Shown here: one piece after another, positions 4,998 to 63,808 of the stretch
Layout of the letters: each line of letters starts with the position of its first letter
How positions within the stretch are numbered: position 1 is the first letter of the stretch
NCBI GenBank assembly: GCA_000165345.1
Contig: CM000429.1
Coordinates: 192,001-256,000 of the forward strand
DNA: 64,000 bases
Direction of reading: 5' to 3'
Made by a program: the position numbers and the translations under genes
Notes under the pieces: model-generated
Told to the model about the DNA's origin: nothing
The model's input: the letters and a program-made list of their open reading frames with translations, nothing else
Database searches by the model: none

Positions 4998-5066
4998 GCG
5001 TCAAGTGCATGCACGAGACGGCGCGCGGTGGTCTGCATGCATGCCGGTAAAAATGGGTACCGTAGG
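4998..5066. promoter_or_regulatory. GC-rich island in the convergent spacer between the dynein 3' end and the phosphatase 3' end. It holds GCATGC at 5007-5012, a GCATGCATGCCGGTA run at 5035-5050, and GGTACC.
   Basis: Seen directly: gcgtcaagtgcatgcacgagacggcgcgcggtggtctgcatgcatgccggtaaaaatgggtaccg. This is a local GC spike in otherwise AT-rich DNA. Confidence 0.4.
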
Positions 5067-5212
5067 TAATAATAATTGTTGATAAGAGAGAAGAAAGGAA
5101 ATAAGAGGTGGAGAATTGTTGTAAATGTTATTATTTTAAATATAAGAATAAAATACTTACATTTTAATTTTAATCTACTTATGTATTATTTGTATGATTG
5201 ATTGATAATTGA

Positions 5213-7570
5213 CTATTGATAGAAATAGTTCCAAAAACTGTTAGATTCTTCACCTTCGAACTCAAAGTAAATAGAACTGATTTCTTTTATACTCAATTTT
5301 GAATTGTTTCTAATTAGTAGAATTAAAAGTTGGGTAATATCTAACTCGAAATGATGATTATTAATTTGTTCATTGAGGTTAGTTTTCTCATAATCCTTTA
5401 AACTTTGATTTTCAGCAGTACTTAATATTAATGAAGATACATCTGCATGGTTATGACTATCATTTCCTTGAAAATGTTCGGAAAGAATTTGTTTGGCTTG
5501 ATTAAAGTACGTAGTCTTAGATCCAATCCAAAGATAAACCATAATGTTTTTAATAGGATTTTTTTCTAAGGGTGAAAGTGGGAGATTGGTTTGTTCTTTG
5601 TCTTTTTCTTTTTCTTTATCTTTTCTCTGTTCTTCTTGTTTCTTTTTCTGTTCTTCTTTTTCTTTATTTTTTTGTTCATCTGAAGTGATTTCTCCAATGA
5701 TAATGAGAGGACAGACTGAGGTAGGAAGAAGATCCTCAGAATCAAAAAAGCGAAGAGACTCTGATCCAAAATAATCTGGAAATCTAAATAATAAAACTTT
5801 CATTCTTCCACTATCTAAAGTACTGTGGCAATCCTCATTCATAGAAAGATTTTCTTGAGATATAGAACTTCTTTTTGAGTAGCTGCTATTATTAAAACAG
5901 AAAACCTCTTCCTGGAAAAAATGTATTGAATGTTGCTTCTTTACAGGAGCAGAATCTTCTTTAGTAGAAAATGAATGAACTTTTAAGTCTTTCATTTCTG
6001 ACTCTTGTGACTGAGAATGATCTTCCAAAGATTTATCTCCACCTTTGAAAGCAAAATTCAACTTTGGTATCACAACTTTACCAAAAGTCAAAGGACAACT
6101 TTCAATTTCTCTACTTTCCTTTTCCAGAAGATTATCTCTTGAGTAGATAATTCTCCGAGAATCTAATGAAAAATGATGTTGGTTGATTCGTCCCATTTCT
6201 TTAATAGATTCTGTATCAGAGCTTTTGAAATTATCAGGTGAATTTTTTGAAGGAATTGGAGATCCATTTGAAGACGGAAAAGAAGAAAAGTATGGCAAAG
6301 ACTCGTCCAAAGATATTAAAGATGATAACTCTGAGCTTGATTGAGAATCTGAACTCAATCTATCTATTTGGTTGTAATTTCTTTCATTATTATCAACCCC
6401 AACATCTTCGGCCTCATCTTCGACATCATTCTCATAATCCAAAATAATGGCATTTTTGGAAATACTTTTTATCGATGGAGAGGAAAATGACCTTTGTATT
6501 ACGTCATAGGAATTACATAAATGCAAATCTGTTGGCGCCAGAATTTGCATGAATTCCCCGCTCTCTGAGAATTCGTGAAAGTATTCGAGAATAATGGTGG
6601 AAGAAAGGATATTTGTAATACATTCAGAGGCTGAATTTCGGTCATCTGCAAGAGCTCCAATTATCAAGTCTGCTCTGATTTCTAAGTTTTCCAGCTCTAA
6701 AGATGAGTCATATCCTATTTCGATTTTGAGAATTTGTCTGCAAAACCTCAAAACCGCTAGAATTGACTCCCTAACGCCCTCATTAACTTGGCTTCCAATC
6801 CAAATCCAAAGTTTCTCACGACGAATAGAGTCTGCTTCCTCTAGAAGACTTTGTCTTAATAGATAGATTTTATTTGAATTTAGACTAAATTTATTACTTC
6901 CGTCCCCTTTCCAATGAATTAACGAAACTGGAATGCCATGTTTAGATATATAGTAAATCTTTGAAGAAGTAATCCAATGTTTCTTTCCAAGATGGTCTAT
7001 TGAAGGAAGCTCAGCTTTTTCTCCCCCTCCTTCTTCTTTTTCATCCCTAGTTGGAATCCCAAATTTTACCAAACTCAGAGCTTTCTGAAATAATAATAGC
7101 TGATAAGTAAACCCAATATTTGGACTTGAAGTGCCCCTTCTTTCTCTTACATATTCTGAAGCATCATTAAAGCTTTTATTATATTTCCACATTAAATAAC
7201 CGATTACTATACTAGAGGATCTAGAAACACCCTCTTGACAATGTACATATATCCTGTTTTCATTGCTTTCCTTGAATTTTGCATCAATCCATTCAATACT
7301 ATCATAAAGCACTCCTTCAATGCTTTCTTGAGGAGTATCCAAAACATAATAAGTCCTGTACTCTAGCTTATTTTGAAACACATTCTTGCAAACATCTCCT
7401 GAAACATTAATTATATGCGTTATCTTGTTTTTTTCCAACTTATTCCAATCACAAGCTACCTGATATCCTCCGAGATACAGTCTACCTTCAATTATCTCAC
7501 TACAAACTGTTCTATACCTTTTAATTATATTCAAACGTTCATTCGTTAGCATATTAACTTTTTCCCCCAA
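5213..7570 (-). CDS. Dual-specificity protein phosphatase. The DSP catalytic domain is N-terminal; the long C-terminal part is low-complexity and K/E-rich.
   Basis: A 785-aa ORF. It carries the active-site signature VHCQEGVSRSSSIVIGYLMW (HCxxGxxRS P-loop), preceded by a DSP-like fold (YLGGYQVA...). The C-terminus has KEKEEQKKKQEEQRKDKEKEK repeats. Confidence 0.8.
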   Translation of the reverse strand: MGEKVNMLTNERLNIIKRYRTVCSEIIEGRLYLGGYQVACDWNKLEKNKITHIINVSGDVCKNVFQNKLEYRTYYVLDTPQESIEGVLYDSIEWIDAKFKESNENRIYVHCQEGVSRSSSIVIGYLMWKYNKSFNDASEYVRERRGTSSPNIGFTYQLLLFQKALSLVKFGIPTRDEKEEGGGEKAELPSIDHLGKKHWITSSKIYYISKHGIPVSLIHWKGDGSNKFSLNSNKIYLLRQSLLEEADSIRREKLWIWIGSQVNEGVRESILAVLRFCRQILKIEIGYDSSLELENLEIRADLIIGALADDRNSASECITNILSSTIILEYFHEFSESGEFMQILAPTDLHLCNSYDVIQRSFSSPSIKSISKNAIILDYENDVEDEAEDVGVDNNERNYNQIDRLSSDSQSSSELSSLISLDESLPYFSSFPSSNGSPIPSKNSPDNFKSSDTESIKEMGRINQHHFSLDSRRIIYSRDNLLEKESREIESCPLTFGKVVIPKLNFAFKGGDKSLEDHSQSQESEMKDLKVHSFSTKEDSAPVKKQHSIHFFQEEVFCFNNSSYSKRSSISQENLSMNEDCHSTLDSGRMKVLLFRFPDYFGSESLRFFDSEDLLPTSVCPLIIIGEITSDEQKNKEKEEQKKKQEEQRKDKEKEKDKEQTNLPLSPLEKNPIKNIMVYLWIGSKTTYFNQAKQILSEHFQGNDSHNHADVSSLILSTAENQSLKDYEKTNLNEQINNHHFELDITQLLILLIRNNSKLSIKEISSIYFEFEGEESNSFWNYFYQ

Positions 7571-8001
7571 AAATCCAGAATACTTATTATACTAATTATC
7601 AACTTATCTGTGTTTTCTATTCCCAAAATCTCCTCCCCCCTATTCTCTTCCCTTATTTTCATCAAGCTCTCTTCTGAAAGCGATTTAAAAGAATCCTTTT
7701 TTCAAAAATAAAAATACCAAAAATAAACCCAAAAACTATATCAGATATTTTGTATTCGTTAAGTCTTATCAAGCCTTAATTATTTAATTGTTCGTTTCCC
7801 CCTCCCCTCCTTTTCCTTGGGCTTTTCCCTTGGAAGAAGAAAAAAATCTTTTAGCCAAAATAATACCTCGGAAACAATCTTCTTATTGCCACTAGATCTA
7901 TTATCTTTATCTATAATTTTGTGAAATTTCTCTCTTTTCCTTCCCTTAACCTATTATTTTCCACTTTTTTATCCAAAAAATTATCAAATCCTATTTTTCT
8001 A

Positions 8002-8092
8002 TTTTGGCGGGAAAGCATGCTTACAATTTTACGAGACTGCTTTCTATATGTGAGAAATAAGTTTTCATGTTTTTTTTAGTTTTGGCGGGAAG
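8002..8092. promoter_or_regulatory. Two E2F-like sites, TTTTGGCGGGAAAG (8002-8015) and TTTTGGCGGGAAG (8080-8092), plus GCATGC (8015-8020). They sit in the divergent spacer between the phosphatase (-) and the 8261 gene (+).
   Basis: Exact motif instances are seen in the sequence. From memory, TTTGGCGGGAAA and GCATGC are known over-represented upstream motifs in Cryptosporidium. Confidence 0.55.
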
Positions 8093-8260
8093 TTGGTTCA
8101 GAGCTAGAAAATAATTAAAAGTAATTGTGGGAAAACAAGAGAAAGTCTATGTATATTGAAGACTAAGTTATGGAAAGCAAAGGTGAACTTTTTTCTTTTT
8201 TTTGATGTCTCACTGTAATTTTTTATTGATTGATTTTGAATCCTAAGAAACCTGGAAATA

Positions 8261-9745
8261 ATGAAGGTGGAGACTACTCCTCAGGAACATAAAGGTAAAA
8301 TCAACTTGGATAAAGGTCAGCAATTGAGAATACTGTCATCTAATAGCCATAATGGCGGTGAACAGGCTTTGAGTCATAAAGTAAGAGAAAAACTAAGTTT
8401 GGAACAAGTTCAAAAGTTAAAAGACTTGTTAGTAAATAGAGAATATAGCCAAAGTCTTGAATTGTTGCTTGAATATTATTATAATGGATCCATTATTGAG
8501 AGTTGGATGGAGAGCTTAATTCCTGAGAAAATAAACTATAAATATGTAAACAATGAGCTCAAAGATTCTCCAGACTTTCACCTATATGATATTTCTGGGA
8601 TCATTATACTTAGCTATATAATCCATTGTTATATATGTAAGAACGATATTTTTGGAGCAATCCAATTAATCAAAAGCTTTGAGAGGGCTTGTTTTATTTT
8701 AAAGATTGGTGAAAATGATAAGAATCACCAATCAGATGTTGTAGATAACGTTAATTCGCATTTTATTTCATGGTGTAACTGTTTTTCAATTCGAGATGTA
8801 TTTCAAGAAAACAAAGGTATCATTAAACACGAATTAAGATCACGAAAGCATTTCCTAAAACTAATTGACATTTACTACTTTTTTAGGATACAAATAATCT
8901 TCTGGAAGTTAGCTATGTACAAAACTTATCATATTCCAAATGCTTCAGTATTCTTGCCTGAAAATAAACATGGCAAAGATCTGAGTGAGAATATTAAGAT
9001 TGAGGACTACTTTGTATTTTTTGACCAAGCAATTGATGAATTGTATGTGATCATTAATGAAATTGATTACATTTTAGAACTTTTCAAAGATTTTGATAAG
9101 CAAGTCACAAATAAATGGCTTCTCAAATATAAAGTAGTTCTTTTCATCCTTGTTGAGGCTTTAACCCTCAGAGACTACTATAATGAGGCTATACAAATTT
9201 TGAATGATTCAATGCAGAAACACTTTCCAGATGATATATCTTTGTATTCTTTGATTGCTAGAATATCCCTCCAATATGGGAACTTTCCTTTGGTTCACTC
9301 TACTCTAAATACTATTGAGGAACGCCTCCAACACCCAAAGCATAATACAAATTTTAATATTGCTCACTATAGATTTACTCTTGGACTATTAAATATGGCT
9401 CAGGATGATCCAGTTACTGCCTCCCTTAATTTCAATACTTCAGCTGCCTTGTATAAAGAACTTGCTATTAACTTTAACAAAGAATACTTACTTCCATGCA
9501 GTACTTCCTTCAACAATCTTTCTGTTGCTTCATTTTATTCAAGTAAGCTTCCCAATTCTGTATCCATTCTTGAGAACCAGATCTACAACCAAAACAACTT
9601 CTTTTTCAATTCCCAGCAACTTTTTGCTACCAACTTTAAGAATCTAAAAACTTTGTATCAGTTTTCATCCGATAAAGATAAGCTAATCAACGAGCTTAAA
9701 AAAATTTCCAAAAGCTCACTTAGATACTCAATCATGATTAATTAA
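8261..9745 (+). CDS. Hypothetical protein, 494 aa, no domain I can recognise.
   Basis: Long ATG-initiated ORF in AT-rich DNA, with promoter motifs just upstream. Composition is helical and hydrophobic-rich. No motif identified. Confidence 0.5.
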   Translation: MKVETTPQEHKGKINLDKGQQLRILSSNSHNGGEQALSHKVREKLSLEQVQKLKDLLVNREYSQSLELLLEYYYNGSIIESWMESLIPEKINYKYVNNELKDSPDFHLYDISGIIILSYIIHCYICKNDIFGAIQLIKSFERACFILKIGENDKNHQSDVVDNVNSHFISWCNCFSIRDVFQENKGIIKHELRSRKHFLKLIDIYYFFRIQIIFWKLAMYKTYHIPNASVFLPENKHGKDLSENIKIEDYFVFFDQAIDELYVIINEIDYILELFKDFDKQVTNKWLLKYKVVLFILVEALTLRDYYNEAIQILNDSMQKHFPDDISLYSLIARISLQYGNFPLVHSTLNTIEERLQHPKHNTNFNIAHYRFTLGLLNMAQDDPVTASLNFNTSAALYKELAINFNKEYLLPCSTSFNNLSVASFYSSKLPNSVSILENQIYNQNNFFFNSQQLFATNFKNLKTLYQFSSDKDKLINELKKISKSSLRYSIMIN

Positions 9746-9978
9746 TTTCTATGATTACCTTAAATACTTTTATAGCTAACATTTTAAAAATGCAAGACAA
9801 ATATAAACACCTTTGTTATGTCAACTTTAACTTTTTCTTACCCCTTTCCCTAATTATCGCAGCTGTTTTTATATCAATAATCTTGTTTGCATGCAATTTT
9901 ATGAACTAAGATTTCTTTTATGCCCCCACAACCACATGTTTCCTTTATGTGAATTTGAAAATCTATCTACACCACTTT

Positions 9979-10167
9979 TTATACTAAATCCAACTCTTTT
10001 CTCTTTAGGTCATTATTTTTAGTTTTTTGTCCAAAAGGGTTTATAAATCTATCCATTTTGAACCACTCTTTATTGTAATACCTAAATAAGTCTGACTTTA
10101 TTCTCTTCCAGCTCTCTACTTTTGGGTACAAATAACTAATAAATGTGTTATCAGAATTCAACAACAT
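9979..10167 (-). CDS. Possible small protein (62 aa), unassigned.
   Basis: Only an ATG-initiated 62-codon ORF in an otherwise gene-free 1-kb spacer. Weak. Confidence 0.2.
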   Translation of the reverse strand: MLLNSDNTFISYLYPKVESWKRIKSDLFRYYNKEWFKMDRFINPFGQKTKNNDLKRKELDLV

Positions 10168-11419: not shown

Positions 11420-12198
11420 ATAAATAATTTACATTTTGATTTTTTCACTTCCAAATGAAATTATTCCTATATTACGTGTATTAGTTTCAAGGCAAAATGC
11501 CAGGAAATGGGCTGGCTTTTAGATATTTACTTAGCCAGATATCGCTAATTATAAAGTTATCTTCTTTAATTTCCTATCCCAATTGTTATTTCTTTTTTCT
11601 CCCTGTTCACACGAAATTCCCTTTAATTTATCTTATTTTACCCACAGCCATGTAAAATAACTGTTCCACCCCCCATTCTGACTGCACTGATTAAACTGCG
11701 GGTGAATGGCGCCAATTCCACTTTGACATTTAATTAATAATCAAGTCAAAAAAATCCTAATTCCAATAAATCAAAAAAAAAAAGAAATCCCATTAAAATG
11801 GGAAGAGTATATATTTGAGATATTTTCGGAAGGGATTTGATAAAATGCCGAAGTTATCTGAATATTCAAAAGAAATTTCAAAAATAAGACGTAAGTTTTA
11901 CTTTTCCAGGCTCCGACTTAGTATTTCCAGCCCAGCAGCGCAATGTGGGAAATTGCATGCATGCAACACTGTTTGCAAATTTGCTGCCATTTATGTGTGC
12001 TGACATTAACAGAAAATAATTAACTTGAAAAATGTGAAATTTTAGAATCTCTAAATTATTCCCTTTTGGAAAATGACTCTGAAGTTCAGAGGTTAATTCA
12101 AAACAACGATCGTGCCCCTAAGAACAAAAACAAGACTTTTAATACTAAGAATGTGTGTGAATCATTTGCAATATTGTCAAATATGGAGGATCCTGCAG

Positions 12199-12273: not shown

Positions 12274-12276
12274 GAG

Positions 12277-21423: not shown

Positions 21424-22604
21424 GAGTTTTCTTCTTCAGTGGCTTGAAATATTAACACATCCCTACTAATTTGTCAAAGTAGACTCTGTTTTTTTTTTAA
21501 ATAGATTTAATAATTTTCTTTAATTGTTATTAAATTAATTAGTAAAATATTAGTTAATTATTGAATAAACAAATTCATATATAAATATATATATTTTGAT
21601 ACTTAATTTTTTTTTTCTCAATTTTTTAATTCTTTCTGCAAATTATTATTTCAAGATGAAAGCACTTTATAATTGAATAAAAGACAAACTCTAATTATTT
21701 TTTTTTTCTTCTCTTGTGAGAAAATTGAGCAGTCTTTTATGCTGTCCTTTTCCCTAATACTCTCAAAATCCCATTATTTTCTTCTTTATTAATAAAATTC
21801 ATATATTACATATATACCCATGCACGTATTTAAATATAGTCAATTTTTTTTTTAAAAATTTGCAACAAGACTGCACACAACACGTGTCATTTTGCATGTA
21901 CAAAATTGCAATACCGGCGTGGCAGCAGTTCCACATGAAAATACACCGGTACTAAAACACTTGCATAAATTTTTGTCCACATGACATTGGAATTATAAAA
22001 AAAATGACAACGGATGAGATACAAAATTTGAATATTTTACTTTAAATAATTGACAAAATAATGAGTTTTTAATACGAAAACAAGATATGAATTTAATGCA
22101 AACATATAAATGTATATATTTTTAAAATTATTCTCTCGATAATTGGGGACTTTTATATTAGTCTAACCATTTTCAAAAGGAGCGCATGCAGGTTATCCAC
22201 ATGCACATGCACTTTGGCAAACATTTTTTTAGCAATAAATTACCGGCATGATAATACAGATTTTAAGTCTTAACTAGAAATTGAGGATTTTTTTTTAATT
22301 AAAAATTAAGATGCTAGTTATTTTAAAAAGATTTAATCTATAAAAAAAAATTGACTTTTTATTCCAAATTAATATTTTAATGAGGGGACAAGGTAGAAAT
22401 ATATTTGTGGGGAGCTTGGTGGGGCAATGCAAAAACAATAGATTTAATTAGGCGGAAACAGAATAAAAAAAAAAAAAATTAAGATCACCAAGAGAAAAAA
22501 GACCAAGTTTGAATAGGTAACAAGAATCAATTAGCTAAATATCGAGAATTTAAGTTCGACCCAGTATTGCCAAATTTTCTATAAAATAGTGAAATGTTGG
22601 CCTG

Positions 22605-28218: not shown

Positions 28219-28544
28219 CTCAGTTGCTTTGTAATTAGATTCTCCATTATTTACTATATACCAATCTCTTCTTTGATTTAAATAACGCAAATAATATAAT
28301 TCTAATTTAGTTTTTATATTAAATTCTATTATACTAGTTTTAGTTATTGCAATTTTTCTTATCCACTTTTTTTCTCATTTCAATTTTCTCCTATACCGGT
28401 ATTTCCATATATTCATATTGTAATCACATGCTTATGTGGACAAATTAATTATTAACATTTTCCGCATGCAAATACCGGTCAACCATAATTTATGGGAATG
28501 TTATGAAAAGGAAAAAAGTTTTTTTTTTATTATTAAATGTAAAG

Positions 28545-29453: not shown

Positions 29454-29722
29454 TTTTTTTTATTATAAATATCAATTCCAGTAATCTCCTTATAAACTCA
29501 ATAAATAAATTTTTATTTTTTTTTGAATATATTATAATTTATTCAACACAAATTCGGAAAAAAATGACGTAATATATTTGCATGCATGCAATTATACCGG
29601 TATGGTATTTTCATCATACATGCAGAGTTTAAGGTGGAGGCAAAGGGAAAAAAGAAAATAGTTGTAAAATATCAAATAAAATTAATATATACTTTTAAAG
29701 AAGAATTCTAAAGTTTTATTTA

Positions 29723-32317: not shown

Positions 32318-32572
32318 TAAAGAAAATCAGCTGAAAGTGGAAGAAGAATAGCTTTTTTTTCCCCTCCACTCAAAAAATAATTTTATCATTATTACGTGTC
32401 TCCTGCAAATCGCCTATACCGGCATTCATGCAGAAATCTTTGCACATGCAAAAAAAAAAAGTTGCACATGTGGACAACAAAACACAAAAATATAATTATT
32501 GGGGCTCGCCCATCATAATCTACGATAAACTAGTAATCTTAAAGAAATTTTCATTTTTATTTCTTAAAAAGA

Positions 32573-39976: not shown

Positions 39977-41158
39977 AAAAAAAGTTGTCCCAAGAACGAT
40001 TTGTCAAATCAGTTCAGAGACTACATTAACTCTCTCATTCAACCGAACCTTATTTGAGCCTCTTTATCCATATACTATTATTTTTAAAGGCCCTCTGTAC
40101 CTTTAGCTATTTAGCTTCTTATTATCTTCCTACCTGACGAAAAAAATTCCGGCTGTAACTCTCTCAGAGAAAGTTCGCGCAATTATCTTCAATCTTCTAT
40201 TGTACTTTCAACTTATTTCGGAAATTTGTCTTTTCAATTCTTTATTTTCTTCTACTTTTCCGAAGTAACCTAGCTATTTCCTTGTAAATTAAACCTTTTC
40301 CACCATAATTTGCCCGCCTAAATGATCAATTTTTAAAAAATTTAATATTAAGCCACAGCTTTAAAACTTGAATGACTAGAGCCTGTTTTGACCTAAAGTA
40401 TAAAGTTTTTGCAAATTCTGTTAATTTGTGCTTTTTAATGGAATTTTACCTTTATTCGGTTCTAAGTTTTACTTTCAAAACACCATTTAGTATTATTGTC
40501 TTTATTCATGCAATAAACTTTATTGAGTGGTTTAAATTGGGGGAGCTATCAGTATTTGAAAGCTTATTTTATTTACCGGCATTTGCATGTTATCCACTCT
40601 GCATGGCTTGCATACTATTTCTGGCATTTGCATGCAAGCCGGTATTCAGACTATTACTCCCCAAATTGTTAATTATTACTTTTTTTTAGGCAATGCGAAA
40701 GCAAACTTTAGATTGGTTGATAAACTTGCTACTGTCTTATCATTATTATTATTACTATTATTATTGCTTCTATTAGTGAACTAGTTTGGCTAAATGCGAT
40801 AATAGAAATTCTATTATAATCAGGTTAGCTATTAAAAAAATAGTATCCCAAAAAATTCCAGGTAAAATTCAAACCTTTCTGGTTGAAATTCTAACACCTA
40901 TTTATTTCTAAAGGGTTCGTTAACTTGACAAAATTTTTCAAATATCGACTTTTTAATTAAACTGACGTAAAAATAAAACACACCCAAAAGTACCTTACTA
41001 AGGGTTACAAAATATCAAATTAGTACAAAATTTCTTAAAATGGCTTTCGTTTCGATATAGTTCATTATTTTCTTGTTCAAATATTAAAAAAATTTTCGCC
41101 ACAAATTAATATTTTACTTTAAGAATAACTTATAATTCAACCCTACCCACTCACGTGA

Positions 41159-41232
41159 GCTGTCTTAGCTCAGCACGGTAGAGCGCCAGCCTTTTAAGCT
41201 GGTGGTCATGGGTTCGATCCCCATAGACAGCG
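41159..41232 (+). tRNA. tRNA-Lys (anticodon TTT/UUU), 74 nt. A T5 tract immediately 3' fits a Pol III terminator.
   Basis: I folded it by hand as a cloverleaf: acceptor GCTGTCT/AGACAGC, D-arm GCTC..GAGC, anticodon stem CCAGC/GCTGG with loop CTTTTAA, T-arm ATGGG-TTCGATC-CCCAT, discriminator G, then TTTTT. Confidence 0.85.
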
Positions 41233-42268
41233 TTTTTGTCCAACAGATCGGTGTTTCCCGCCTTGTCTTTTGAAATCATTTTGTTAAATAGCAAATTAAT
41301 ATTAATAAGTTAGAGGTAATACAAATTAATAGTCTCTGTTGACAAACTGGAAAGCCAATTTTATTCAATTTTTTTTTTTTAAATATATTAATTTTCCCCT
41401 CTATAAATTTTTAGCTATTTAAGCTAAGAAAAAAATTTTGTATAAAAAGTTAAGTACATTAGTGTGAATAGTTTTAGGTTTTGGATTTTTTTTAGAACCT
41501 TCATAAAGTCTCTTATAAGGAAAATATCAGCAGGTTCTTGACAAAAAGAGAAAATAAGGACAGAAGTAGATAATTTTTTATTTGGGCAAAAAAGTGATTA
41601 TTGAAATTAGTATTGATGTTATTACATGTACTTTAACTTGCCCCCCTCATAAATAAAGTAGTTTGCAAAATAATTACACACTAAAATTAATAGTAAATTT
41701 GTGCGAGTGCAAATTATGGATTAAGTTCATACTTGCTATAGAAAATAATTTTTTTAAGTAAATAATTCAGTATTTGCTATAATATATTCCCATTTCATGG
41801 GAATTATTAAATATAAATTATTCATATATTTTTAAGTTTGTGAAAAATATTTACGTATATAATTATTTTTACCCTCGCAAGTTTCTCCACCTGCATGGCT
41901 TGTCGGGTTTGATATTTAGGCGGTACAATCCTCTCTGAATAAACGGAAGAAAAATATTCCCCTTTTTGGACTTTTCACATTTTCTGGAATTAGAGAGGAA
42001 AATAAAAATAAAAATAAAAATAAAAAAACAAAAATTAATTCAAAGACGATTGGAAATAGATTTATTAAATATCAACTTATTTGAAGCATTTTTTTCAAGT
42101 ATTTTAGAAACAGTTGGTATTAATTCAAGTATTTGCCAGACATTATATAACTTCAAAACTTGAATATAAAATAATATTCTCTTTTTATTTGATATAAAAT
42201 AAAAAAGACTTAAATTAATAGCAAATATAGATTTTTTTTTTTGAATACAGAAATTAATAATATTCATA

Positions 42269-47594: not shown

Positions 47595-47673
<79 letters not shown>

Positions 47674-49893: not shown

Positions 49894-49925
49894 TTCACAT
49901 AGCTTGTTTTAATCCCAAATCTACC

Positions 49926-49946
49926 TGCATGCATGCATGCATGCGG
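49926..49946. repeat. Tandem (GCAT)5 / overlapping GCATGC x4, in the convergent spacer between the 48448(+) and 50137(-) genes.
   Basis: cctgcatgcatgcatgcatgcggtac. Confidence 0.8.
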
Positions 49947-51594: not shown

Positions 51595-53792
51595 TTGACC
51601 TTCTATTTGACCTGAATTCTATAATATATAAATATATATTTACATTTATACCAATGTTAATTTTCATGCAAATAACACATATATAAATGAAATCTTTCCT
51701 TATTTACCTGCTTTAGCTTTATTTTCTGAGTTAAATATTCTTTCTCTTCAAATTACTAGTTTCATTAAAAAATTATTAACCTGCGAAACTTCAATTCAAT
51801 ATATACCTTTCAAAATGATGATTAAAAATCTAATACAATTTCTTCATAACATTAAAAATTTTGTATTAAATCATTTCCAGATAGATTACATTTATTTATT
51901 GATTTTCTTCCAACTTATTAAATCCAATAATAAAAACCTTTGATAGCTAGGAAATATTTATATCCTTCAAGTAATACCTAGTTGATCAATTTAAATTCCT
52001 GGCCTTATTCCAATAAAATCAGCCTTAATAGTCTCTGAAAAATTTAGAGGTTTTTAAGAGTTAACTAGCATTCAGTTATTATTGATAATATTCTTTTTAT
52101 TGTTAAATTAATAGGAAAGCCTTTTTTGTAATGGTTAAAAGATCTACCACACAGATATCCTATACACCGCCAAGTTTCATGTTTTTTTAATCTTGTCTTA
52201 TCTTTAGATAGATAACTGATTTTATTTACTTCATGCTTTCAGATTTGGCGCCCAAATCTTTATTATTTGTAATTATCCTCGGGATTTCCCCACATTAAGT
52301 ATCTTAATGATCTTGGCAGATGTTTTACCAGCTTAAATTAATTTCTTAAAAGTATAAATATTAAAGTAGCTTTAAACTTCATTTCATACGAGAAGCAAAA
52401 TATGACCAGCTGAATGCTCAATCTTAATAATATTTTTCTTTCTGAATAACTTACTTAGAGTATTTATTTTTTTTATATTTCTTTTTAAAAAAAACATGGA
52501 GGAAGGTTTTGTTTCTGATTTATCAATTGAAATACTATGTTGAAAATAATTTTATAATAATTAGAAAAAAATTTATAATTTATCCACATGAAAACGTTGA
52601 AATTTTTTCATCGCATGTAAAATTTTGTCCTCACTTGCAATGCCGGTATAGAATATTGCGTGCACACAAATTTTTAAATAAAATGAATAATAGACACGTG
52701 TACTAATAATAAATATCAATAAATTTATTGTAAATGTTAATTTTTATTAATAAAGTTTAGAATTCTTATTTATTTTTTTTTTAATAATATTTTATTGATG
52801 TAATGTGAATAATTGAAAACTATTATTTTTTTTCCGATAAAAAAATCCTGGTTTATTATAGAGAATATTATGATATATAATTTTCAATTATAAAATATAA
52901 AAAAGGATTGAATCAAATTTTTATTAATATTGTATTATTGCTCATTTTAGACGTGTTATTTCGATGAAATAAAATGGGGGATAGGCGTGGCAAGGCTCAA
53001 GAAAATGACTAGATAATAAGCATTAAATCTAATTTTATTAGAAATACTTTGTTTTTAAATACAACTTTAAATTAAATTCTTACCAAAACTCAAAAATTAT
53101 AGAACATTATTACTTCAATCTCAATTATTGTCATAAAATTAAAAAAAAAAAAAAAGAAAAAATAATAAATTGTCAGATTGCATGCAACTTCATTTTAATG
53201 TGGATAAATGCACACGCACTGCATGCATTTTGCAGATAATATTTTCGATAGCTAAGAATTAGATGAAATAAAAACAATTAAATAGATTTAAGAAATTAAA
53301 ATTTGATTAAAAAAATTAAAATTAACCATGGATAAAATATTTTTTTTAATTAATTTAACAAGTAATATACTTTTTTCAGAGGCTGTATAAGGTATATTTT
53401 TTGCATTAATTATGTACTTGTCTTCATACACACACGCTTTGTCTTCAGTTATTGACTGAAGATGCCCTTAATTGAGCATACTGCATTATCTGGTTATGAT
53501 GTTCGTTATACAGTAATTAGAGGTCGAAACAATAATTGTGAAAATAGAGGAATATACAAGATATCTAAAAGTAAAGATCGGAATTAAAGCATTGCAAAAG
53601 TATTAGATCAACGGTGAATGTGAATGGAGCTTTGAAAAATAAAAAGGAAGTAATTCAGCTCAATTTAAGTGATAAAAACGCGTCCTGTTGGGGTTAGTCA
53701 AAGTGATAACAATAGTAAAATATTTTGAAACATTCTAATAAAGAAAAAAAGGTTGAATACATTTTTTTAAATCTAAAAAATATTATAATAGA

Positions 53793-56294
<2,502 letters not shown>

Positions 56295-56812
56295 TAAATG
56301 ATATAAAAGATAATATAATTACTTTATTATTACAAAAGATTCAAAGGTAATGAAAATAATGTCATTAAATAAAGCATATTTATAGGATTAGTAATAGTTG
56401 TACTATGGTAAAGTAATCATATTATAATTTATTATTTTATGAGTAAATAAAGCATATGATGATTTTGGTAAGTGAGTGTGTATAATATCATAGAAGAATA
56501 TTTTGAAGAAAATCAGTTTTATTGTAAAAGATATAAATGAATATTGTCATTATTATTAATATAATAAAAACAAATAATTATATTATTACCAAATAACCAT
56601 ACAAATGAACTTATTTCTTTCCTATTTAACATTAATTTATTTATTTATTCAAAAACAAAAGGAAAAGAAAAAATAAATAATAAACAAATTTATTTAATAA
56701 ATTCCCTTATAATATACCTTTTCTCTATTTGGCAAGAAAAAAAGTGAGTTGAAATAATTATATTTTAATAATTTAAAGTTTGAAAGCAATCCCATATTCA
56801 AATATACGTGGT

Positions 56813-56900
56813 GCCGGTATATAAAAATTGACTAGGATGACATTTTTATTTGGCGCATGTTAGTGCATGCACTTACACATGCACTGTTTTGGCGGGAAAT
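56813..56900. promoter_or_regulatory. Promoter-like cluster: TGCCGGTATATAAAAATT (a CCGGTAT element plus a TATA-like box), GCATGCAC x2 and an E2F-like TTTTGGCGGGAAAT. It lies in the convergent spacer between the RING gene 3' end and the ABCE1 3' end.
   Basis: ggtgccggtatataaaaattgactaggatgacatttttatttggcgcatgttagtgcatgcacttacacatgcactgttttggcgggaaatctgggacgg. Confidence 0.45.
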
Positions 56901-57452
56901 CTGGGACGGTAAGTGATTTGTTTATAGAAAATAAAATTATTAGAGTTATAGTCAAGAGGAAGTGATAGTGAATAAGTAGATGTAAATTTAAGAGAGAGAG
57001 AGAGAGAACGAGTGGATTCAGAGTAAATGAAGGTAAATTTTTCAAGAATTGATCAGAAAAAAAAAGAAACAAGTAAGAGTAAATCAATGGAAAATGAGGG
57101 GTGGTATGAAAGAACTAAGGTAGTGATAGAGAAGAGGTATGTTTAAGGAATTTATACAATAAATAGGCGAATAGGGAAAATGTTCGTGTATTCAAGGCGG
57201 CAAAGCCACACTTGTTTAGAATTGATTCTCTTAGACTTTTTGAGTTTATGTGAATAATTTTACTTCTGTATGACCTAAAATGATTATATTATTGTTTAAC
57301 AATATATAAAAAAAGTTTGTAAAAAAAAAGAATGACGTATTAAAATTATATAATTATTATAAAGGAAGCGAAAGAATCAAGTTAAGAATGTTTCTTGGCT
57401 TGTTTGTATTAAGGATTTGTGAGGTTTTTTCTTTTTTTTTTTCTCTTGATAT

Positions 57453-59309: not shown

Positions 59310-59569
59310 TCTTCCTTTATAAATAAATATATATTTTCAGCTATTTTAGCCCTATTTTCTTCCTTGTATTGATTTATTAGTACTTTGATTTTTAAGAGTT
59401 AACAATCAAAGTATTTAATTTATGTATCATGTATAATATTAAATGCTTGAATTAAATAATTATTTAATCAATTTTAATCAAATTGCTATTTATTAATTAT
59501 TAAATTTTTATTTTATTTAATATTATACATAATAAATATATTTAATTACCCTGCCAAATTCCAACAAAC

Positions 59570-59962
59570 TTTAGGCGGGAACCATTGAAGTCTGACATTT
59601 TCTTTATAAATAAATAAATTAATCCTTTTATTAAAAATTTGTGGGCATTTTGGAATATAAATGCGAGGAAAAGCATAAATATTTCCAAAAATTTCTCTTT
59701 AAAATCTTTTTCTTGAGTTTCTTTTGGAATTTCACTCTGAAAGAATTGTATAAAACAAAATAGGGCCAATTAAAAAAAGGTAAGAACTGTAGCTGGAAGT
59801 AGTTATAACAGAAAGCAGAGACTATTTGTAAAGTTAACAAGAGAAAGGAGCTATTTAAGCACAAAATGTCCTTGCTCTGGTTTCTTCTGAGAACCCGCCT
59901 AATACTTTGATTTAAAAAAATCAATGCATGCACAAAGGCTGAATGTGGATTTGGCGGGAATC
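59570..59962. promoter_or_regulatory. Upstream region of ABCE1. It has E2F-like sites TTTAGGCGGGAACC (59570-59583), AACCCGCCTAAT (59892-59903) and ATTTGGCGGGAATC (59949-59962), plus GCATGCAC (~59927).
   Basis: Motif instances are seen directly. The ABCE1 start codon is at 59309 on the minus strand, so these are 260-650 bp upstream. Confidence 0.5.
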
Positions 59963-60085
59963 TCGAGTTTAGTCTGATTACTTGTAGTTCTTGAACAGTT
60001 ACTCTGAATATGAAATTACTGCTATTATTTTAATATATAAAGTTTGGGATGATTTGAGAATGCTATAAAGTTGAAAATAAATTAT

Positions 60086-63000
60086 TTAGGATGTAAAAAG
60101 AGTAAGCATTTTGTTTGTGACGTAGAATCCACCAAAAGTATTGATAGAGGCCAAAAATGTAGAGAACATGGACATTAAGGTAGTATATGTTACAGTTTGG
60201 TTCCCATATTGCATCATACTACCAATGATGATTACTCCAGAAAGAGCATTAGTTACTGACATTAAAGGTGTATGTAGTTTAGGATCCACATCCCATACAC
60301 AGTAATATCCCAACATGGTTGAAATGATAAAGGAAAAGATATTTTGGATCTGAATTGTAGTCATTGTGAGTCCTAATACTGTGAAGAAAAGAGTAGCAAG
60401 TATTACTCCAGCATAAAAGTTTACTCCTCCATTCAATTGCTTATCAAAGTTTTTAAATTCTTTCATGACTTTTTGTAAATACCCATCGATTTCAGTTTTT
60501 GAGCAAAAAACAGAAGTTTTACTTGTGGTTGTATCTTCATCCTTGATAGAAATGAGAGTTGACTGCTTTGAAATATTTTCAAGAAGACTCTTCTTTTCTA
60601 ACATTTCTTGGTTTTCGTGCTTCTCTTGATTTTGTTCAGTAAAAGGTCTCCAAAGCATCTTATTTTCATGAGCAACACACATTTTTGAAATGATTTCATT
60701 GTTCAAATCACATTTAAACCTATCAGATGTTGGCCCTAATTCACTAATTAAAGATAATAAGTTTCCAGAAAACAATTCACTGCTTTGTAATGGCATTGAA
60801 AATACATAGTTACATTTTCCAATAATTGTTGTTCCTGATTGAACATCAGAGAATGTTCTGTCTTTCTGGGTTAATTCACAGTTACCTCCAAATTCTGAGC
60901 AAAGATCTACAATAACTGATCCACTCTTCATCTTTCTTACAGCTTCTTTTGTAATCAAAATTGGGCATTCCTCACCAGGTTTACATGCTGATGTGATTAC
61001 AATATCTGAGATACACAAATACTTTTCAATTAAATCCCTCTGCTTTTTCAATATTTCCTCTTTTCTGAGAGATTCTCCCTCACTTGGGACTTGGATAAAC
61101 CTTGCTCCACAGCTTTCTGCTTCTTCCTTTGAAGTAGATCGTGAATCCATTGCAAACACTTTTGTTCCCATACTTTTTGCTGTAGCAATGGCCTGTAGAC
61201 CAGCAACACCTGCTCCTATGACTAATACTGTTGACTCTTCAACATTACCCGCTGCACTGGAAATTGATTTACTAATTCTTGGAAGATAATTAAAAGCATC
61301 AACTACTGCTCTATATCCAGAAATTGTGCTTGTTGTAGTTCTAATATCCATAGTTTGAGCACGAGAAGTTCTTGGAACTTCATCCAAAGCTATCACAGTT
61401 ACTCCATTCTTTGTTAAGCTTGCTAGTAGTTGATCTTGGCTGTTCTCCTTATCTTGGTACTGACTTATATGCATGTTACAAATTAAAAACTGTCCTTGTT
61501 TCATGCACTTTGCTTCCTTCTCACTTGGTCTAGCCATCTTGATCACTACATCACATTCCTTGATTAACTCCTCAATATTTTTATATACAAGAGCTCCACT
61601 TCTCATATATATCTCCTCTGAGAAATATTTGGACTGGAATGATGAAGTTAAAACATCTCTGGAAATTGCTACTTCATATCCCTTTTCTCTAAACTTATAC
61701 ACTTTAGAAGGAGGTATCGGGAATAATAAAGTTTTATCTTGTTCTGAAACTATTGGTAAAAGAGCAATTTTTTTTGAACCTTTGTTAGCACTCATAGATA
61801 CTTTCTCTGTCTCTGTTTCTGCTCCACCGGCTTTCTTGCTCCTAGAACTAACATTTCCTGAAGTCTTGGATGATTTTCTTTGCTTTGAAGAAAGTAAAGC
61901 TGTCGTAACCTCATCAGTATCTTCAACTTCTTCTATCTCTTCTGTTACCCTTGAATCTATATATTGCCTTGGAACAAATCCTGCACATCCTTTTAATATC
62001 TTATATACTTGTTGAAGAGTTTCTCTTGAATCACCAAGTAACATTCTGGTTCTTTCACATGTAAAGAGTTCATTTTCAATGCATGCATATCCATATGCTA
62101 AGGATCTTTTTGAAACTACGACTTGTTTTGCTTTCCAAACATTTATTACTGGCATTCCTGAAATCTTACTTTGAGGGTCCAAAGCTGCAGGATTAACTAT
62201 ATCATTAGCTCCTACCACTAATACCAAATCATACTCGTGCATGCAATTGTTCACAGCATCCATCTCTTTAACAATTCTGCTTGGTACTCCTGATTCAGCA
62301 AGTAAAACATTCATATGGCCTGGCATTCTTCCAGCCACTGGATGAATTCCAATTTCTACTATTGTACTTCTAGACTCTAATTCTTTAATTATATCAGAAA
62401 TTATATCTTGACATTTACTTACTGCCATACCATATCCTGGTACTATAAGTATCTTTGACGATTCAGCTAATATCTCAGCAGTTTCTTTTGAACTTGTAGT
62501 ATAACATTTTGTATCTCCTACCATCTTTTCTGTCTCTTCCTGATCAAATCCTCCAAGAAGAACTGAAACAAAGTCTCTATTCATTCCTTTACACATTATA
62601 TATGAAAGTATTGCACCACTTGAACCAATTAAAGCTCCACTTATAATTAAGAGACTATTGTCCAAAAGAAATCCTGTAATAGCCGTAGACCAACCACTGT
62701 AGCTATTTAACATACTTATTATTACTGGCATGTCAGCTCCTCCAATACTTATAATCATAAATATCCCAAATAAAGCTGAAAGAATCATTCCACAATGTAA
62801 GTTGGTTGTTATTACTAACTCGTTATTGGATACACAAAATGATAATCCTGTCATACATATTGAAAAAAGTAAAATTGAAAGTGATACATTCTTTAATGGT
62901 ATCTTTACACTCTTACTTGGAATAATATCATCCAACTTCAATGCTGCAATGACCGAACCAACAAAAGTTATCATACCCATAACACCTCCTACAAATAATT

Positions 63001-63529
63001 CCATTCTTCTTAAGACATAGATTCCTTCCTTCATCCCAATAGAAGAATAGAAATAAGAATATGATACAAATAATGCTGCCAATCCAACAAGACTGTGAAA
63101 TATCGCAACCAATTGTGGCATTTTTATTAATTGAGTTTTATCTGCAATATAAACACCAACAGCTCCTGATACTATTGTTGCCAAAAAGAATACAAAGTAG
63201 TGATTTCCAAAACCTTCTTCTGATAACGATACCAATATTGCTACCATCATTCCTACAAACCCTACTATATTACTTCTATATGCAGTCTTTTCAGATGATA
63301 ACCCTTTAATGCAATAAATAAAGCATAAAGCTGCAAAAAATTGGCCTGCCATTGTCAAAGACCCTGAATTACTTGTTTGATAAATCTCTGAGAGTCCCAA
63401 AAACAAGCTTTTACCACCTTCCTCCATTAACTTTCCTTGTAGTCTTGCATCCACACCATTAAGTGCAAAAATCACTAATAATACCACTGAAAATACTAAT
63501 AATCCTAATTTCATACTTAATTTCCTCAT
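60086..63529 (-). CDS. Single-polypeptide proton-translocating NAD(P) transhydrogenase. The domain order is dIIb(TM)-dIII(NADP)-linker-dI(NAD)-dIIa(TM), with an N-terminal signal/targeting peptide.
   Basis: The beta-type part comes first: GGADMPVIISMLNSYSGW, PGYGMAVSKCQ, AGRMPGHMNVLLAE and VVGANDIVNPAA. Then comes an S/K-rich linker. The alpha-type dI follows, with VIGAGVAGLQAIATAKSMGTKVFAMDSR. The C-terminus has TM helices. Confidence 0.9.
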   Translation of the reverse strand: MRKLSMKLGLLVFSVVLLVIFALNGVDARLQGKLMEEGGKSLFLGLSEIYQTSNSGSLTMAGQFFAALCFIYCIKGLSSEKTAYRSNIVGFVGMMVAILVSLSEEGFGNHYFVFFLATIVSGAVGVYIADKTQLIKMPQLVAIFHSLVGLAALFVSYSYFYSSIGMKEGIYVLRRMELFVGGVMGMITFVGSVIAALKLDDIIPSKSVKIPLKNVSLSILLFSICMTGLSFCVSNNELVITTNLHCGMILSALFGIFMIISIGGADMPVIISMLNSYSGWSTAITGFLLDNSLLIISGALIGSSGAILSYIMCKGMNRDFVSVLLGGFDQEETEKMVGDTKCYTTSSKETAEILAESSKILIVPGYGMAVSKCQDIISDIIKELESRSTIVEIGIHPVAGRMPGHMNVLLAESGVPSRIVKEMDAVNNCMHEYDLVLVVGANDIVNPAALDPQSKISGMPVINVWKAKQVVVSKRSLAYGYACIENELFTCERTRMLLGDSRETLQQVYKILKGCAGFVPRQYIDSRVTEEIEEVEDTDEVTTALLSSKQRKSSKTSGNVSSRSKKAGGAETETEKVSMSANKGSKKIALLPIVSEQDKTLLFPIPPSKVYKFREKGYEVAISRDVLTSSFQSKYFSEEIYMRSGALVYKNIEELIKECDVVIKMARPSEKEAKCMKQGQFLICNMHISQYQDKENSQDQLLASLTKNGVTVIALDEVPRTSRAQTMDIRTTTSTISGYRAVVDAFNYLPRISKSISSAAGNVEESTVLVIGAGVAGLQAIATAKSMGTKVFAMDSRSTSKEEAESCGARFIQVPSEGESLRKEEILKKQRDLIEKYLCISDIVITSACKPGEECPILITKEAVRKMKSGSVIVDLCSEFGGNCELTQKDRTFSDVQSGTTIIGKCNYVFSMPLQSSELFSGNLLSLISELGPTSDRFKCDLNNEIISKMCVAHENKMLWRPFTEQNQEKHENQEMLEKKSLLENISKQSTLISIKDEDTTTSKTSVFCSKTEIDGYLQKVMKEFKNFDKQLNGGVNFYAGVILATLFFTVLGLTMTTIQIQNIFSFIISTMLGYYCVWDVDPKLHTPLMSVTNALSGVIIIGSMMQYGNQTVTYTTLMSMFSTFLASINTFGGFYVTNKMLTLFTS

Positions 63530-63808
63530 TTTTACCCTTTACAATAATTTTTAATAATTTTTGTAAATTATTACTTTTTTTTTCTCTATTACAGAGATGA
63601 CGCTCTATTGTGCATATCCACATGCAATGACGAATTTCATGCAATTTTGAAAAATGCATGCATGCAAAAACATTCCGGTATATAAACTAATAATTATTTG
63701 AAAGAGAGGAAATAAAGTTAAAATTGAGAGTTGTTAATATATATATTAACAATAAAAAGAAAGAATTGAGATAATTATTATATAATCCTTTTAGTAATAA
63801 TTAAAAGT

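Follow-up and report, generated by a model that had tools for sequence, protein, structure and literature searches.

A palindromic CCGG element, ATRCCGGYAT, recurs in intergenic DNA of a Cryptosporidium chromosome window

Described motifs closest to the element

A palindromic promoter motif, TACCGGTA, was described in oomycetes as M94 of P. infestans (Roy et al. 2013) and as motif-9 of Phytophthora (Seidl et al. 2012), and streme-5 of Plasmopara halstedii, ATACCGGTAT, is the same palindrome. This high-confidence predicted promoter motif is over-represented upstream of many genes and is tied to infection-stage and effector genes. The P. infestans Myb protein PITG_08960 selects array 8-mers of the form [A/T/C/G]ACCGGTC (NACCGGTC, ACCGGTCA/G). 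In C. parvum, the AP2_1 word TGCATGCA is bound by cgd2_3490, among other ApiAP2 domains. In sporozoites, open chromatin is dominated by E2F words, with AP2 motifs absent and CCGG not reported (Xiao 2025). Antisense lncRNAs start near gene 3' ends, with E2F or TGCATG promoters (Li 2021). Arrays yielded no motif for several C. parvum AP2 domains, and none of the array-tested domains has a primary motif containing CCGG (2025 review). The genome also has 16 annotated Myb/SANT proteins, none with a known motif.

The window analyzed here is 64 kb of Cryptosporidium (C. parvum-type) chromosome DNA, with 19.4 kb of spacer DNA at 27% GC. Its CCGG element is not new to biology, since TACCGGTA and ATACCGGTAT are already published for oomycetes. 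Two window copies are exactly ATACCGGTAT, the core TRCCGGYA fits M94, and both elements are palindromic, conserved between related species and over-represented in the DNA upstream of genes. However, the host is an alveolate with AT-rich spacers, whereas oomycetes are stramenopiles with promoters of roughly 50% GC, and a tie to infection-stage and effector genes is described for the oomycete motif. A short palindrome can arise independently, and shared ancestry of the factors is unproven. The likeness to the PITG_08960 target lies in the ACCGG(T/C) core: the site at 28472-28481 includes TACCGGTCA and several others include ACCGGC; however, the array motif is the asymmetric ACCGGTC, while the window consensus runs on as TA(T). 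As with AP2_1, the element is a palindromic and highly enriched intergenic word, and the two are physically adjacent in eight of 12 cases, but their cores differ and AP2_1 is about five times commoner in the window. The E2F/DP site (TTTGGCGGGAAA / TGGCGCCA) likewise forms a GC-rich island within AT-rich spacers and is a candidate marker of a promoter class; its sequence is unrelated and it lies largely apart from the element.

An earlier note on this window had proposed that the element might be undescribed beside the E2F, GCATGC and G-box motifs. This agrees with the Cryptosporidium motif lists examined, although the palindrome itself is published for oomycetes: it is not among the 25 motifs of Oberstaller 2013, in the text of the 2014 ApiAP2 array study, in Mullapudi 2007 or Cohn 2010, among the lncRNA promoter motifs of Li 2021, among the ATAC-seq motifs of Xiao 2025, or in motif tables 3 and 4 of the 2025 review. 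The silence of three genome-scale motif studies and one ATAC-seq study would be unexpected if the element were as common genome-wide as in the window.

Enrichment, form and location of the sites

The 14 instances that the earlier note had listed are all present, at coordinates 0-9 nt from those given, with CCGG starting at 5044, 21914, 21946, 22243, 25055, 28396, 28475, 29597, 32419, 40576, 40639, 52643, 56814 and 63675. Strict sites were defined as CCGG with a YAT or ATR flank. Twelve are intergenic where 0.89 would be expected, no more than four appeared in any of 1000 shuffles of each spacer singly, and the same analysis placed coding DNA at expectation (2 vs 1.25), so the claimed intergenic enrichment holds; all statistics come from one 64-kb window and from orthologous, hence non-independent, loci. 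Dinucleotide shuffles of the whole window gave 18 CCGGYAT strand-hits vs 2.2. Bare CCGG is not enriched across the whole window (29 vs 25) and is about 2-fold enriched in spacers (16 vs 8.4). When k-mers in the 19.4 kb of spacer were ranked without supervision, TACCGG/CCGGTA occurred 15 times (2.3 expected, p = 2e-8) and ATACCGG 11 times (0.86 expected); TACCGG ranks fourth among enriched intergenic 6-mers, behind TGCATG, GCATGC and the E2F word GGCGGG. The palindrome ATRCCGGYAT thus recurs far above chance in spacers and its excess is confined to non-coding DNA. Further C. parvum sequence (2.9 kb of spacer) shows no sites, where about 1.8 would be expected at window density, a number too small for the absence to carry weight.

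The element is a 10-bp palindrome, consensus ATRCCGGYAT and core TRCCGGYA, with information content only at positions -3 to +6 and a sharp 10-bp boundary. No sequence information was found among the sites beyond these 10 bp, which argues for a short site and not a repeat. YAT is present on both sides in four of 12 sites (p = 0.006), and the second side carries YA in eight of 12 (p = 3e-4). The CCGG(T/C)AT element as given earlier is corrected to this palindrome. ATACTAGTAT exemplifies a core mutant of ATACCGGTAT. The sites are:

5041-5050, no strand: ATGCCGGTAA, overlapping TGCATGCATG; convergent 3'-3' spacer, dynein heavy chain / dual-specificity phosphatase.
21911-21920, no strand: ATACCGGCGT; divergent kinase / DHHC gene spacer, in a block of ~130 nt conserved in five species; core retained in C. 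ubiquitum, C. felis and C. andersoni, CCGT in C. ryanae.
21943-21952, no strand: ACACCGGTAC, a variant with the ACCGGTA core and without T/A flanks, in the same conserved block; retained in C. ubiquitum, C. felis and C. ryanae.
22240-22249, no strand: TTACCGGCAT; 362 nt upstream of the DHHC start codon; absent in C. ubiquitum and C. felis, retained in L012.
28393-28402, no strand: ATACCGGTAT, perfect palindrome; convergent 3'-3' spacer, Sen1-like helicase / Mnd1; C. ubiquitum counterpart ATACCGTTAT.
28472-28481, no strand: ATACCGGTCA, 4 nt past GCATGCA; same helicase / Mnd1 spacer.
29594-29603, no strand: ATACCGGTAT, perfect palindrome, 6 nt from TGCATGCATGCA; the Mnd1 start codon is 144 nt downstream; retained in C. 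ubiquitum and L012, core retained in C. felis.
32416-32425, no strand: ATACCGGCAT, followed by TCATGCA; 102 nt upstream of a ubiquitin-like gene; retained in C. ubiquitum, C. felis and L012.
40573-40582, no strand: TTACCGGCAT, followed by TTGCATG; 600 nt upstream of the start codon of a 1332-aa kinase; retained in chipmunk genotype I and C. canis.
40636-40645, no strand: AAGCCGGTAT, 2 nt past GCATGCA and 63 nt from the preceding copy; both copies are retained in chipmunk genotype I and C. canis, 53-55 nt apart.
52640-52649, no strand: ATGCCGGTAT, palindromic; 2.2-kb divergent spacer, RING-finger gene / 833-aa gene; retained in chipmunk genotype I, core retained in C. canis.
56811-56820, no strand: GTGCCGGTAT fused to TATATAAAA; convergent 3'-3' spacer, 833-aa gene / ABCE1/RLI; identical in chipmunk genotype I and in the top 1% of conserved 10-nt windows of its spacer.
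63672-63681, no strand: ATTCCGGTAT fused to TATATAAAC, 10 nt from GCATGCATGC; 279-bp tandem spacer, with the transhydrogenase start codon 146 nt downstream.

A 105-aa gene call overlapping 40573-40582 is not conserved.

Conservation across species

Of 11 sites, seven retain the CCGG core in C. felis or C. canis, the distant intestinal species, against a background of 12.7% (all 4-mers, p = 1e-4) or 25% (GC-rich 4-mers, p = 0.008), and nine retain it in nearer species. Six well-conserved sites rank within the top 1-23% of 10-nt windows in their own spacers. The core-only matches 25055 and 40149 rank at 79-86%, are not conserved in other species and are probably non-members; the first of them had been counted as an instance. 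Conservation of the sites exceeds the average without being extreme; the per-site window percentiles, combined by Fisher's method (hand calculation), gave p of about 0.02. In the helicase / Mnd1 spacer, C. ubiquitum and L012 retain a CCGG motif together with GCATGCA, and both sites (28396 and 28475) are only loosely kept across species.

Orthologous loci show four sites vs 0.26 expected in C. ubiquitum, five vs 0.46 in the chipmunk genotype, four vs 0.93 in C. canis and three vs 0.51 in C. felis. The GC-rich species L012 retains matches for 22243, 29597 and 32419 and one in the spacer of 28396 and 28475, and has gained new sites elsewhere, a turnover as expected of binding sites. Judged from these comparisons, the element is kept in related species and selectively maintained. 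The motif is rare or absent (0-1 sites) at the C. ryanae, C. bovis and C. andersoni loci, which counts against a regulatory site.

Neighboring words, placement and interpretation of the element

The reading that we consider fairly probable is a cis-regulatory site, palindromic over 10 bp and read with two-fold symmetry by a sequence-specific DNA-binding protein; the element is most likely where a gene regulator docks. The main competing reading, to which we give a rather small chance, takes the element as part or flank preference of the ApiAP2 TGCATGCA site, or as the site of an ApiAP2 domain that partners AP2_1. TGCATG/CATGCA lies within 30 nt of eight of 12 sites (11% expected, p = 7e-6) and TGCATG is present in all nine motif-bearing spacers; in comparison, five of 16 E2F, six of 13 ACACGT, none of 17 G-box and one of 13 TAGCTA words lie as near. 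The composites GCATGCAAATACCGG and TACCGGCATTTGCATG recur and are conserved across species, and the AP2 domains that yielded no array motif leave room for such a partner. The plant AP2/ERF DRE element TACCGACAT is one base off TACCGGCAT. However, the gap varies from overlap up to 9 nt or more in either orientation, four of 12 sites lack TGCATG within 30 nt, the element is symmetric by itself, and array-tested C. parvum AP2 domains show no primary motif containing CCGG. The proposed coupling to GCATGC holds statistically (five of 12 sites within 30 nt, 7.5% expected) and is looser than the 5-20 nt claimed for most copies. The suggestion of an AP2-site component is not supported, the element being a self-contained palindrome.

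Slightly less probable is a role for a general Reb1-like Myb factor: from these sites it would establish nucleosome-free regions and block read-through between closely packed genes, making the element a boundary or terminator rather than a classical activator site. The yeast Reb1 site TTACCCGG resembles TTACCGGC, and a P. infestans Myb protein binds ACCGGTC. Three convergent 3'-3' spacers hold four of the 12 sites, with the others in promoters, and the density is high (nine of 26 spacers) in a genome where mean intergenic distance is only 504 bp (Li 2021). Against this, the motif is missing from 17 of 26 spacers and is scarce in C. andersoni, C. bovis and C. ryanae, whose genomes are equally compact, and the 3'-3' copies adjoin TGCATG and TATA words as in a promoter.

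A TATA-tied core-promoter element resembling the TFIIB recognition element, at a fixed position from the transcription start, seems improbable. As noted earlier, two copies (56814 and 63675) abut a TATA-like box, being fused to TATATAAA, the former conserved along with it, and in three cases a very short spacer places the copy 102-146 nt upstream of a start codon. However, no TATA box adjoins the other ten of the 12, the nearest start codon is anywhere from 102 to about 1150 nt away, four sites are in convergent 3'-3' spacers, a palindrome has no orientation, and direct comparison gave no match to the BRE consensus SSRCGCC. We judge that the element does not extend the GCATGC box, and the earlier note's suggestion of a core-promoter component finds no support as far as a fixed position is concerned. 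Chance, composition or a repeat or structured RNA is largely refuted and very improbable: bare CCGG shows no window-wide excess and 21914 and 21946 can pair as an inverted repeat, but the shuffles never approached 12 sites, the sites are conserved across species, the flanks carry no information, the only Rfam match in the window is a tRNA, with 21424-22604 empty at E <= 1, and RNAalifold gave -6.6 kcal/mol with no compensatory pairs.

For the regulatory site, we infer protein binding, dimeric binding, a transcriptional outcome and the identity of the factor. In the simplest case the predicted DNA-binding protein would recognize the palindrome as a homodimer. A Myb-like factor seems likelier to us than an AP2 one: a Myb-domain protein is our leading guess and an ApiAP2 domain without an array motif the second. 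Against this reading, the usual Myb target is an asymmetric site bound by a monomer. The element would sit in intergenic control regions of intestinal-clade Cryptosporidium and usually work beside TGCATG(CA), the site of ApiAP2 proteins, and copies in convergent 3'-3' spacers may drive or delimit antisense or unannotated transcripts. An E2F-like word lies within 200 nt of one of 12 sites (37% expected, P = 0.03), a tendency to avoid E2F, and the element would act mostly in spacers without E2F sites. E2F-rich, AP2-free sporozoite open chromatin fits a separate promoter class for the element, and since its spacers are mostly E2F-free, it may mark an E2F-independent class of control regions.

Intergenic enrichment and shape of the CCGG element

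The gene map of the window was built from long ORFs, the gene calls on CP029780.1 and Pfam. The encoded proteins have exact copies on this NCBI record (GCA_031892065.1 CP029780.1), and their best homologues show 99% identity in C. tyzzeri and 93% in C. hominis, which marks the window as chromosomal DNA of C. parvum type. The DNA is AT-rich (GC about 31%) and was partitioned into 44.6 kb of coding sequence and 19.4 kb of spacer. The gene order is as follows:

Genes 1-7: dynein heavy chain (ORF 94-4974, a C-terminal fragment), dual-specificity phosphatase, protein disulphide isomerase, kinase, DHHC palmitoyltransferase, Sen1-like helicase, Mnd1
Genes 8-14: ribosomal protein S19e, ubiquitin-like protein, cyclophilin, eIF4A, 1332-aa kinase, tRNA-Lys, zf-A20/AN1 protein
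Genes 15-20: actin, LRR protein, RING-finger protein, 833-aa protein, ABCE1/RLI, transhydrogenase

The CCGG element has the consensus ATRCCGGYAT and the core TRCCGGYA (ATACTAGTAT being its core mutant), and its sites are named by the start of CCGG. A strict site was defined as a spacer CCGG with a 3' YAT or a 5' ATR, and each spacer was shuffled singly (1000 shuffles). All 14 instances in the earlier note exist, at coordinates that were off by 0-9 nt, and the intergenic excess that it had estimated (about 10 against less than 1) was confirmed, with 12 strict spacer sites against 0.89 expected and a shuffle maximum of 4. Coding DNA, under the same strict rule, contains 2 sites against 1.25 expected. 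On both strands CCGGYAT is found 18 times against 2.2 in whole-window shuffles; CCGG alone is unremarkable across the window (29 vs 25), and therefore the signal is the flanked word in spacers. Furthermore, an unsupervised ranking of spacer k-mers against an order-2 Markov background placed TACCGG/CCGGTA as the fourth 6-mer (15 vs 2.3), below TGCATG, GCATGC and the E2F word GGCGGG, and the high-ranking 7-mers include ATACCGG (11 vs 0.86) and TACCGGC (8 vs 0.36). The right-hand extension beyond the window, with 2.9 kb of extra C. parvum spacer, contains zero CCGG-element sites. These statistics come from one 64-kb window and its orthologous loci in C. ubiquitum, chipmunk genotype I, C. canis, C. 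felis, C. ryanae, C. bovis, C. andersoni and L012, a GC-rich Cryptosporidium contig, which are non-independent samples.

Alignment of the 12 sites on CCGG shows information in ten positions only, A-T-R-C-C-G-G-Y-A-T, with an information content of ≤0.4 bit at each position beyond -3 to +6. Since information falls to background outside these ten positions, and no similarity extends past the short core, a dispersed longer repeat or the end of a mobile element was rejected. Once the selection rule has fixed the first half of the site, the second half shows YAT in 4/12 (p = 0.006) and YA in 8/12 (p = 3e-4), and CCGG is flanked by YA or TR at both ends in 8/12 sites: the CCGG element is a palindrome. 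The perfect form, ATACCGGTAT, is found at 28393-28402 and 29594-29603.

Position, neighbouring words and conservation

Three sites are located in short spacers, 102-146 nt 5' of the start codons of Mnd1, the ubiquitin-like gene and the transhydrogenase. The remaining promoter-side sites are found in long divergent spacers, 360 to about 1150 nt from the nearest start codon, and four of the twelve are in three convergent 3'-3' spacers (5044; 28396 and 28475; 56814). The two copies previously described as abutting a TATA-like box are 56814 and 63675, and both are fused to TATATAAA. These fused copies are 2 of 12, and start-codon distances range from 102 to about 1150 nt.

TGCATG or CATGCA is found within 30 nt of 8/12 sites, with a median distance of 13 nt, against 11% of random spacer positions (p = 7e-6), and TGCATG is present in 9/9 of the motif-bearing spacers. 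Other enriched words lie near TGCATG less often: E2F in 5/16, ACACGT in 6/13, G-box in 0/17 and TAGCTA in 1/13. The coupling to GCATGC proposed from the first reading was borne out as a proximity above chance (5/12 within 30 nt vs 7.5%), but it does not extend to most sites when the strict hexamer is counted. The gap between the CCGG element and TGCATG differs from site to site, the two overlapping at one extreme and standing 9 nt or more apart at the other, with TGCATG on either side, and 4/12 sites lack TGCATG inside 30 nt; no fixed composite with the TGCATG-type AP2_1 (ApiAP2) motif TGCATGCA, of constant spacing and orientation, was found among the 12 sites. Because this gap is variable, they are read as two elements in one module, not as one long site. 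The separation of the CCGG element from E2F-like words is suggestive: among the nine motif-bearing spacers only the three longest have any such word, and one lies within 200 nt of 1/12 sites against 37% of random positions (P = 0.03).

Sites 40576 and 40639 overlap a gene call of 105 aa (40372-40689, + strand). The call was rejected as a real gene, as every frame is interrupted by stop codons in both chipmunk genotype I and C. canis; since the ORF is not conserved in these two species both sites are considered non-coding, and the hypothetical gene of the NCBI record was probably called in error across regulatory DNA.

Each of 29597, 32419, 40576, 40639, 52643 and 56814 is kept in the near species (C. 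ubiquitum or chipmunk genotype I), and C. canis or C. felis mostly keep them too. Site 21914 is kept in five aligned species (C. parvum, C. ubiquitum, C. felis, C. ryanae and C. andersoni), with CCGT in C. ryanae. The exact CCGG core is retained at 9/11 sites in the nearer species, against a background of 34% (p = 0.002), and at 7/11 in the distant intestinal species, against 12.7% for all spacer 4-mers (p = 1e-4) and 25% for GC-rich 4-mers (p = 0.008). When each site was ranked among the 10-nt windows of its own spacer, six sites were in the top 1-23% and the two of the helicase-Mnd1 spacer showed only an average rank; the core-only hits 25055 and 40149 ranked at 79-86% and are not conserved. 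In the intestinal clade the orthologous loci show enrichment of the element; it is rare in the loci of C. ryanae, C. bovis and C. andersoni. L012 retains matches to 22243, 29597 and 32419 and one in the 28396/28475 spacer, and has extra CCGG-element sites in other spacers; this pattern of kept and extra sites is the turnover typical of binding sites.

The L012 contig (Logan SRR31860986, from a public sequencing run) has 16.3 kb and 43% GC, its helicase is 81% identical to that of the window, and gene order and several CCGG-element sites are common to both. In C. ryanae (L005 13331-23330) the gene order breaks directly 3' of the Sen1-like helicase and continues with His_Phos_1, ribosomal protein S7 and TRAPPC8, in place of the Mnd1, S19e and cyclophilin seen in the intestinal clade and C. 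andersoni.

The conserved block 21858-22000 and other spacer words

A block of approximately 130 nt, 21858-22000, in the divergent kinase-DHHC spacer shows conservation across five Cryptosporidium species, the distant C. andersoni among them (counterparts: L003 6623-6775, L004 6658-6830, L005 6625-6790 and L006 2870-3020). Two CCGG sites are found in it within a cluster of short conserved words: the palindrome GACACGTGTC, TGCATG, TTGCAATACCGGCGTGGCAGC, TCCACATGA twice and ACCGGTAC. A structured RNA at 21858-22015 was ruled out by zero Rfam matches and no covariation: Rfam gave only tRNA-Lys 41159-41232 in the whole window and no match even at E <= 1 in 21424-22604, and RNAalifold found no compensatory pairs in the block. 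With neither Rfam match nor covariation, the block looks like a dense cis-regulatory module.

Other words and features of the spacers are:

(T/A)ACGTGTC / GACACGT, 7 vs 0.19 expected: 21882, 30751, 32394, 33799, 47856, 47891, 52693
CCACATG / TCCACATGA, 8 vs 0.59 expected: for example 21931, 21977, 22197
TAGCTA palindrome, 13 vs 2.7 expected, near TGCATG in one case
(GCAT)n runs: 49927-49944 (up to four overlapping GCATGC copies), 5035-5044, 11955-11964, 29580-29589, 63656-63665
tRNA-Lys(UUU) gene, 41159-41232 (+): 5' of the 1332-aa kinase, within its 2.3-kb spacer; the paired CCGG sites 40576 and 40639 are about 520-580 nt away
Long spacers of 1.2-2.3 kb: 39977-42268, 51595-53792, 56295-57452

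The first of these words is conserved beside the CCGG site 5' of the ubiquitin-like gene and is absent from the published Cryptosporidium motif tables examined. The TCCACATGA word agrees with Motif5 (TTGTCCACATK), which Li et al. 2021 reported 5' of lncRNAs of C. parvum. GCATGC boxes are often overlapping (GCAT)n runs. The three long spacers, compared with a reported genome mean of 504 bp, are all well conserved, the two longest with 73-77% identity to chipmunk genotype I, and may contain unannotated transcripts.

Candidate factors and significance

The best-supported reading of the CCGG element is a putative site of a sequence-specific factor. Such a candidate factor would read the element with two-fold symmetry, and the element would act beside TGCATG(CA) sites, in control regions mostly without E2F sites.

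The same palindrome is established in oomycetes as a predicted promoter motif. In P. infestans, M94 is TACCGGTA, included in a high-confidence list based on palindromy, conservation or positional bias; motif-9, an abundant inverted repeat, precedes 1,284 genes in Phytophthora, and in Plasmopara halstedii ATACCGGTAT (streme-5) is found upstream of 206 genes. Like these motifs, the window sequence matches TACCGGTA, with the extended form in two exact copies; it is over-represented between genes, in this window alone (spacers 12 vs 0.89; coding 2 vs 1.25), and it is retained in the orthologous loci of relatives (9/11 near, 7/11 far). On P. infestans arrays, the sole protein with ACCGGT in its top 8-mers is the Myb protein PITG_08960, which binds NACCGGTC and ACCGGTCA/G; CCGG appears only in the supplementary 8-mers of this one protein, not in the main text of the array paper. 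One exact TACCGGTCA is found, at site 28472-28481, whereas the other window sites, unlike the ACCGGTC of PITG_08960, show ACCGG(T/C) followed by A(T) instead of C. From this single oomycete array result we infer that the factor may be a Myb-type protein, the candidate we favour. Sixteen C. parvum proteins are annotated as Myb/SANT, and a motif is known for none of them; Myb proteins of this species include cgd6_4510, cgd3_2510, cgd3_1120, cgd6_2250 and cgd5_110.

An ApiAP2 domain to which no motif has been assigned is a possible alternative; the AP2 domains of cgd3_2970, cgd6_5320, cgd3_1980 and cgd6_1140 gave none. The published primary motifs of C. parvum AP2 domains are TGCAT-like, CACACA/GTGTGT, G-box, GCGTGCA and AAAA, and none of the domains giving a motif shows CCGG. 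The suggestion of an AP2-site or core-promoter component is thus only partly supported: a motif-less ApiAP2 domain is possible, but there is no array-motif match and no fixed composite with the AP2_1 motif, and the Myb-type protein is favoured.

In C. parvum, antisense transcripts were published to start near gene 3' ends, from promoters with E2F or TGCATG, and the copies in 3'-3' spacers fit with such starts. Alternatively, the element could be a boundary or roadblock site of a Reb1-like Myb factor. The Ets, HSF, E2F, GATA and BRE consensuses mismatch the element and were dropped, as was Grainyhead (AACCGGTT), whose flanks are unlike those of the element and whose family is not known from Apicomplexa.

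Rather unlikely, in our estimate, is the widest extension of the Myb-type reading: that the TACCGGTA palindrome and a putative, probably Myb-like factor would be an ancient pair common to oomycetes (stramenopiles) and Cryptosporidium (alveolates), and that in Cryptosporidium this pair would, together with TGCATGCA, set apart a second major class of control regions independent of E2F, including promoters or boundaries in convergent 3'-3' spacers where antisense transcripts are launched or stopped.

The expectation that the word had not been described beside E2F, GCATGC and G-box motifs agrees with the Cryptosporidium motif lists examined: a CCGG motif is absent from Oberstaller 2013 (25 motifs), the ApiAP2 array study, Mullapudi 2007, Cohn 2010, the lncRNA promoter motifs of Li 2021, the ATAC-seq motifs of Xiao 2025 and the motif and AP2 tables of a 2025 review. 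In sporozoites, the ATAC-seq motifs were E2F and poly-T, with no AP2 motif (Xiao 2025). Motif4 of Li et al. 2021 (CCCATACCAGGTGGA, instance CCTATACCGGCTGTC) has most of its instances in a 15-nt tandem repeat that precedes a single lncRNA, and was therefore rejected as an artefact, not the CCGG element. Literature matches to CCGGTAT/CCGGTA were mostly PCR primers. The silence of genome-scale motif searches on a word so enriched here is puzzling; either their cluster-based designs missed a motif that is not cluster-specific, or its density in the window exceeds the genome average.

The CCGG element is one new putative binding-site motif for Cryptosporidium, known from this window and its orthologous loci, the palindrome itself being already described in oomycetes. 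Gene regulation in this genus is poorly understood: about six motif families are recognized, and most predicted regulators have no known site (2025 review). A frequent, conserved and unlisted motif is a probe for assigning a Myb or a motif-less AP2 domain. It may mark an E2F-independent promoter class, which is relevant as sporozoite open chromatin shows only E2F motifs, and the copies in 3'-3' spacers are relevant to the antisense transcription that is abundant in the parasite. Its identity with an abundant oomycete motif leads to the testable idea of a regulator conserved across distant lineages.
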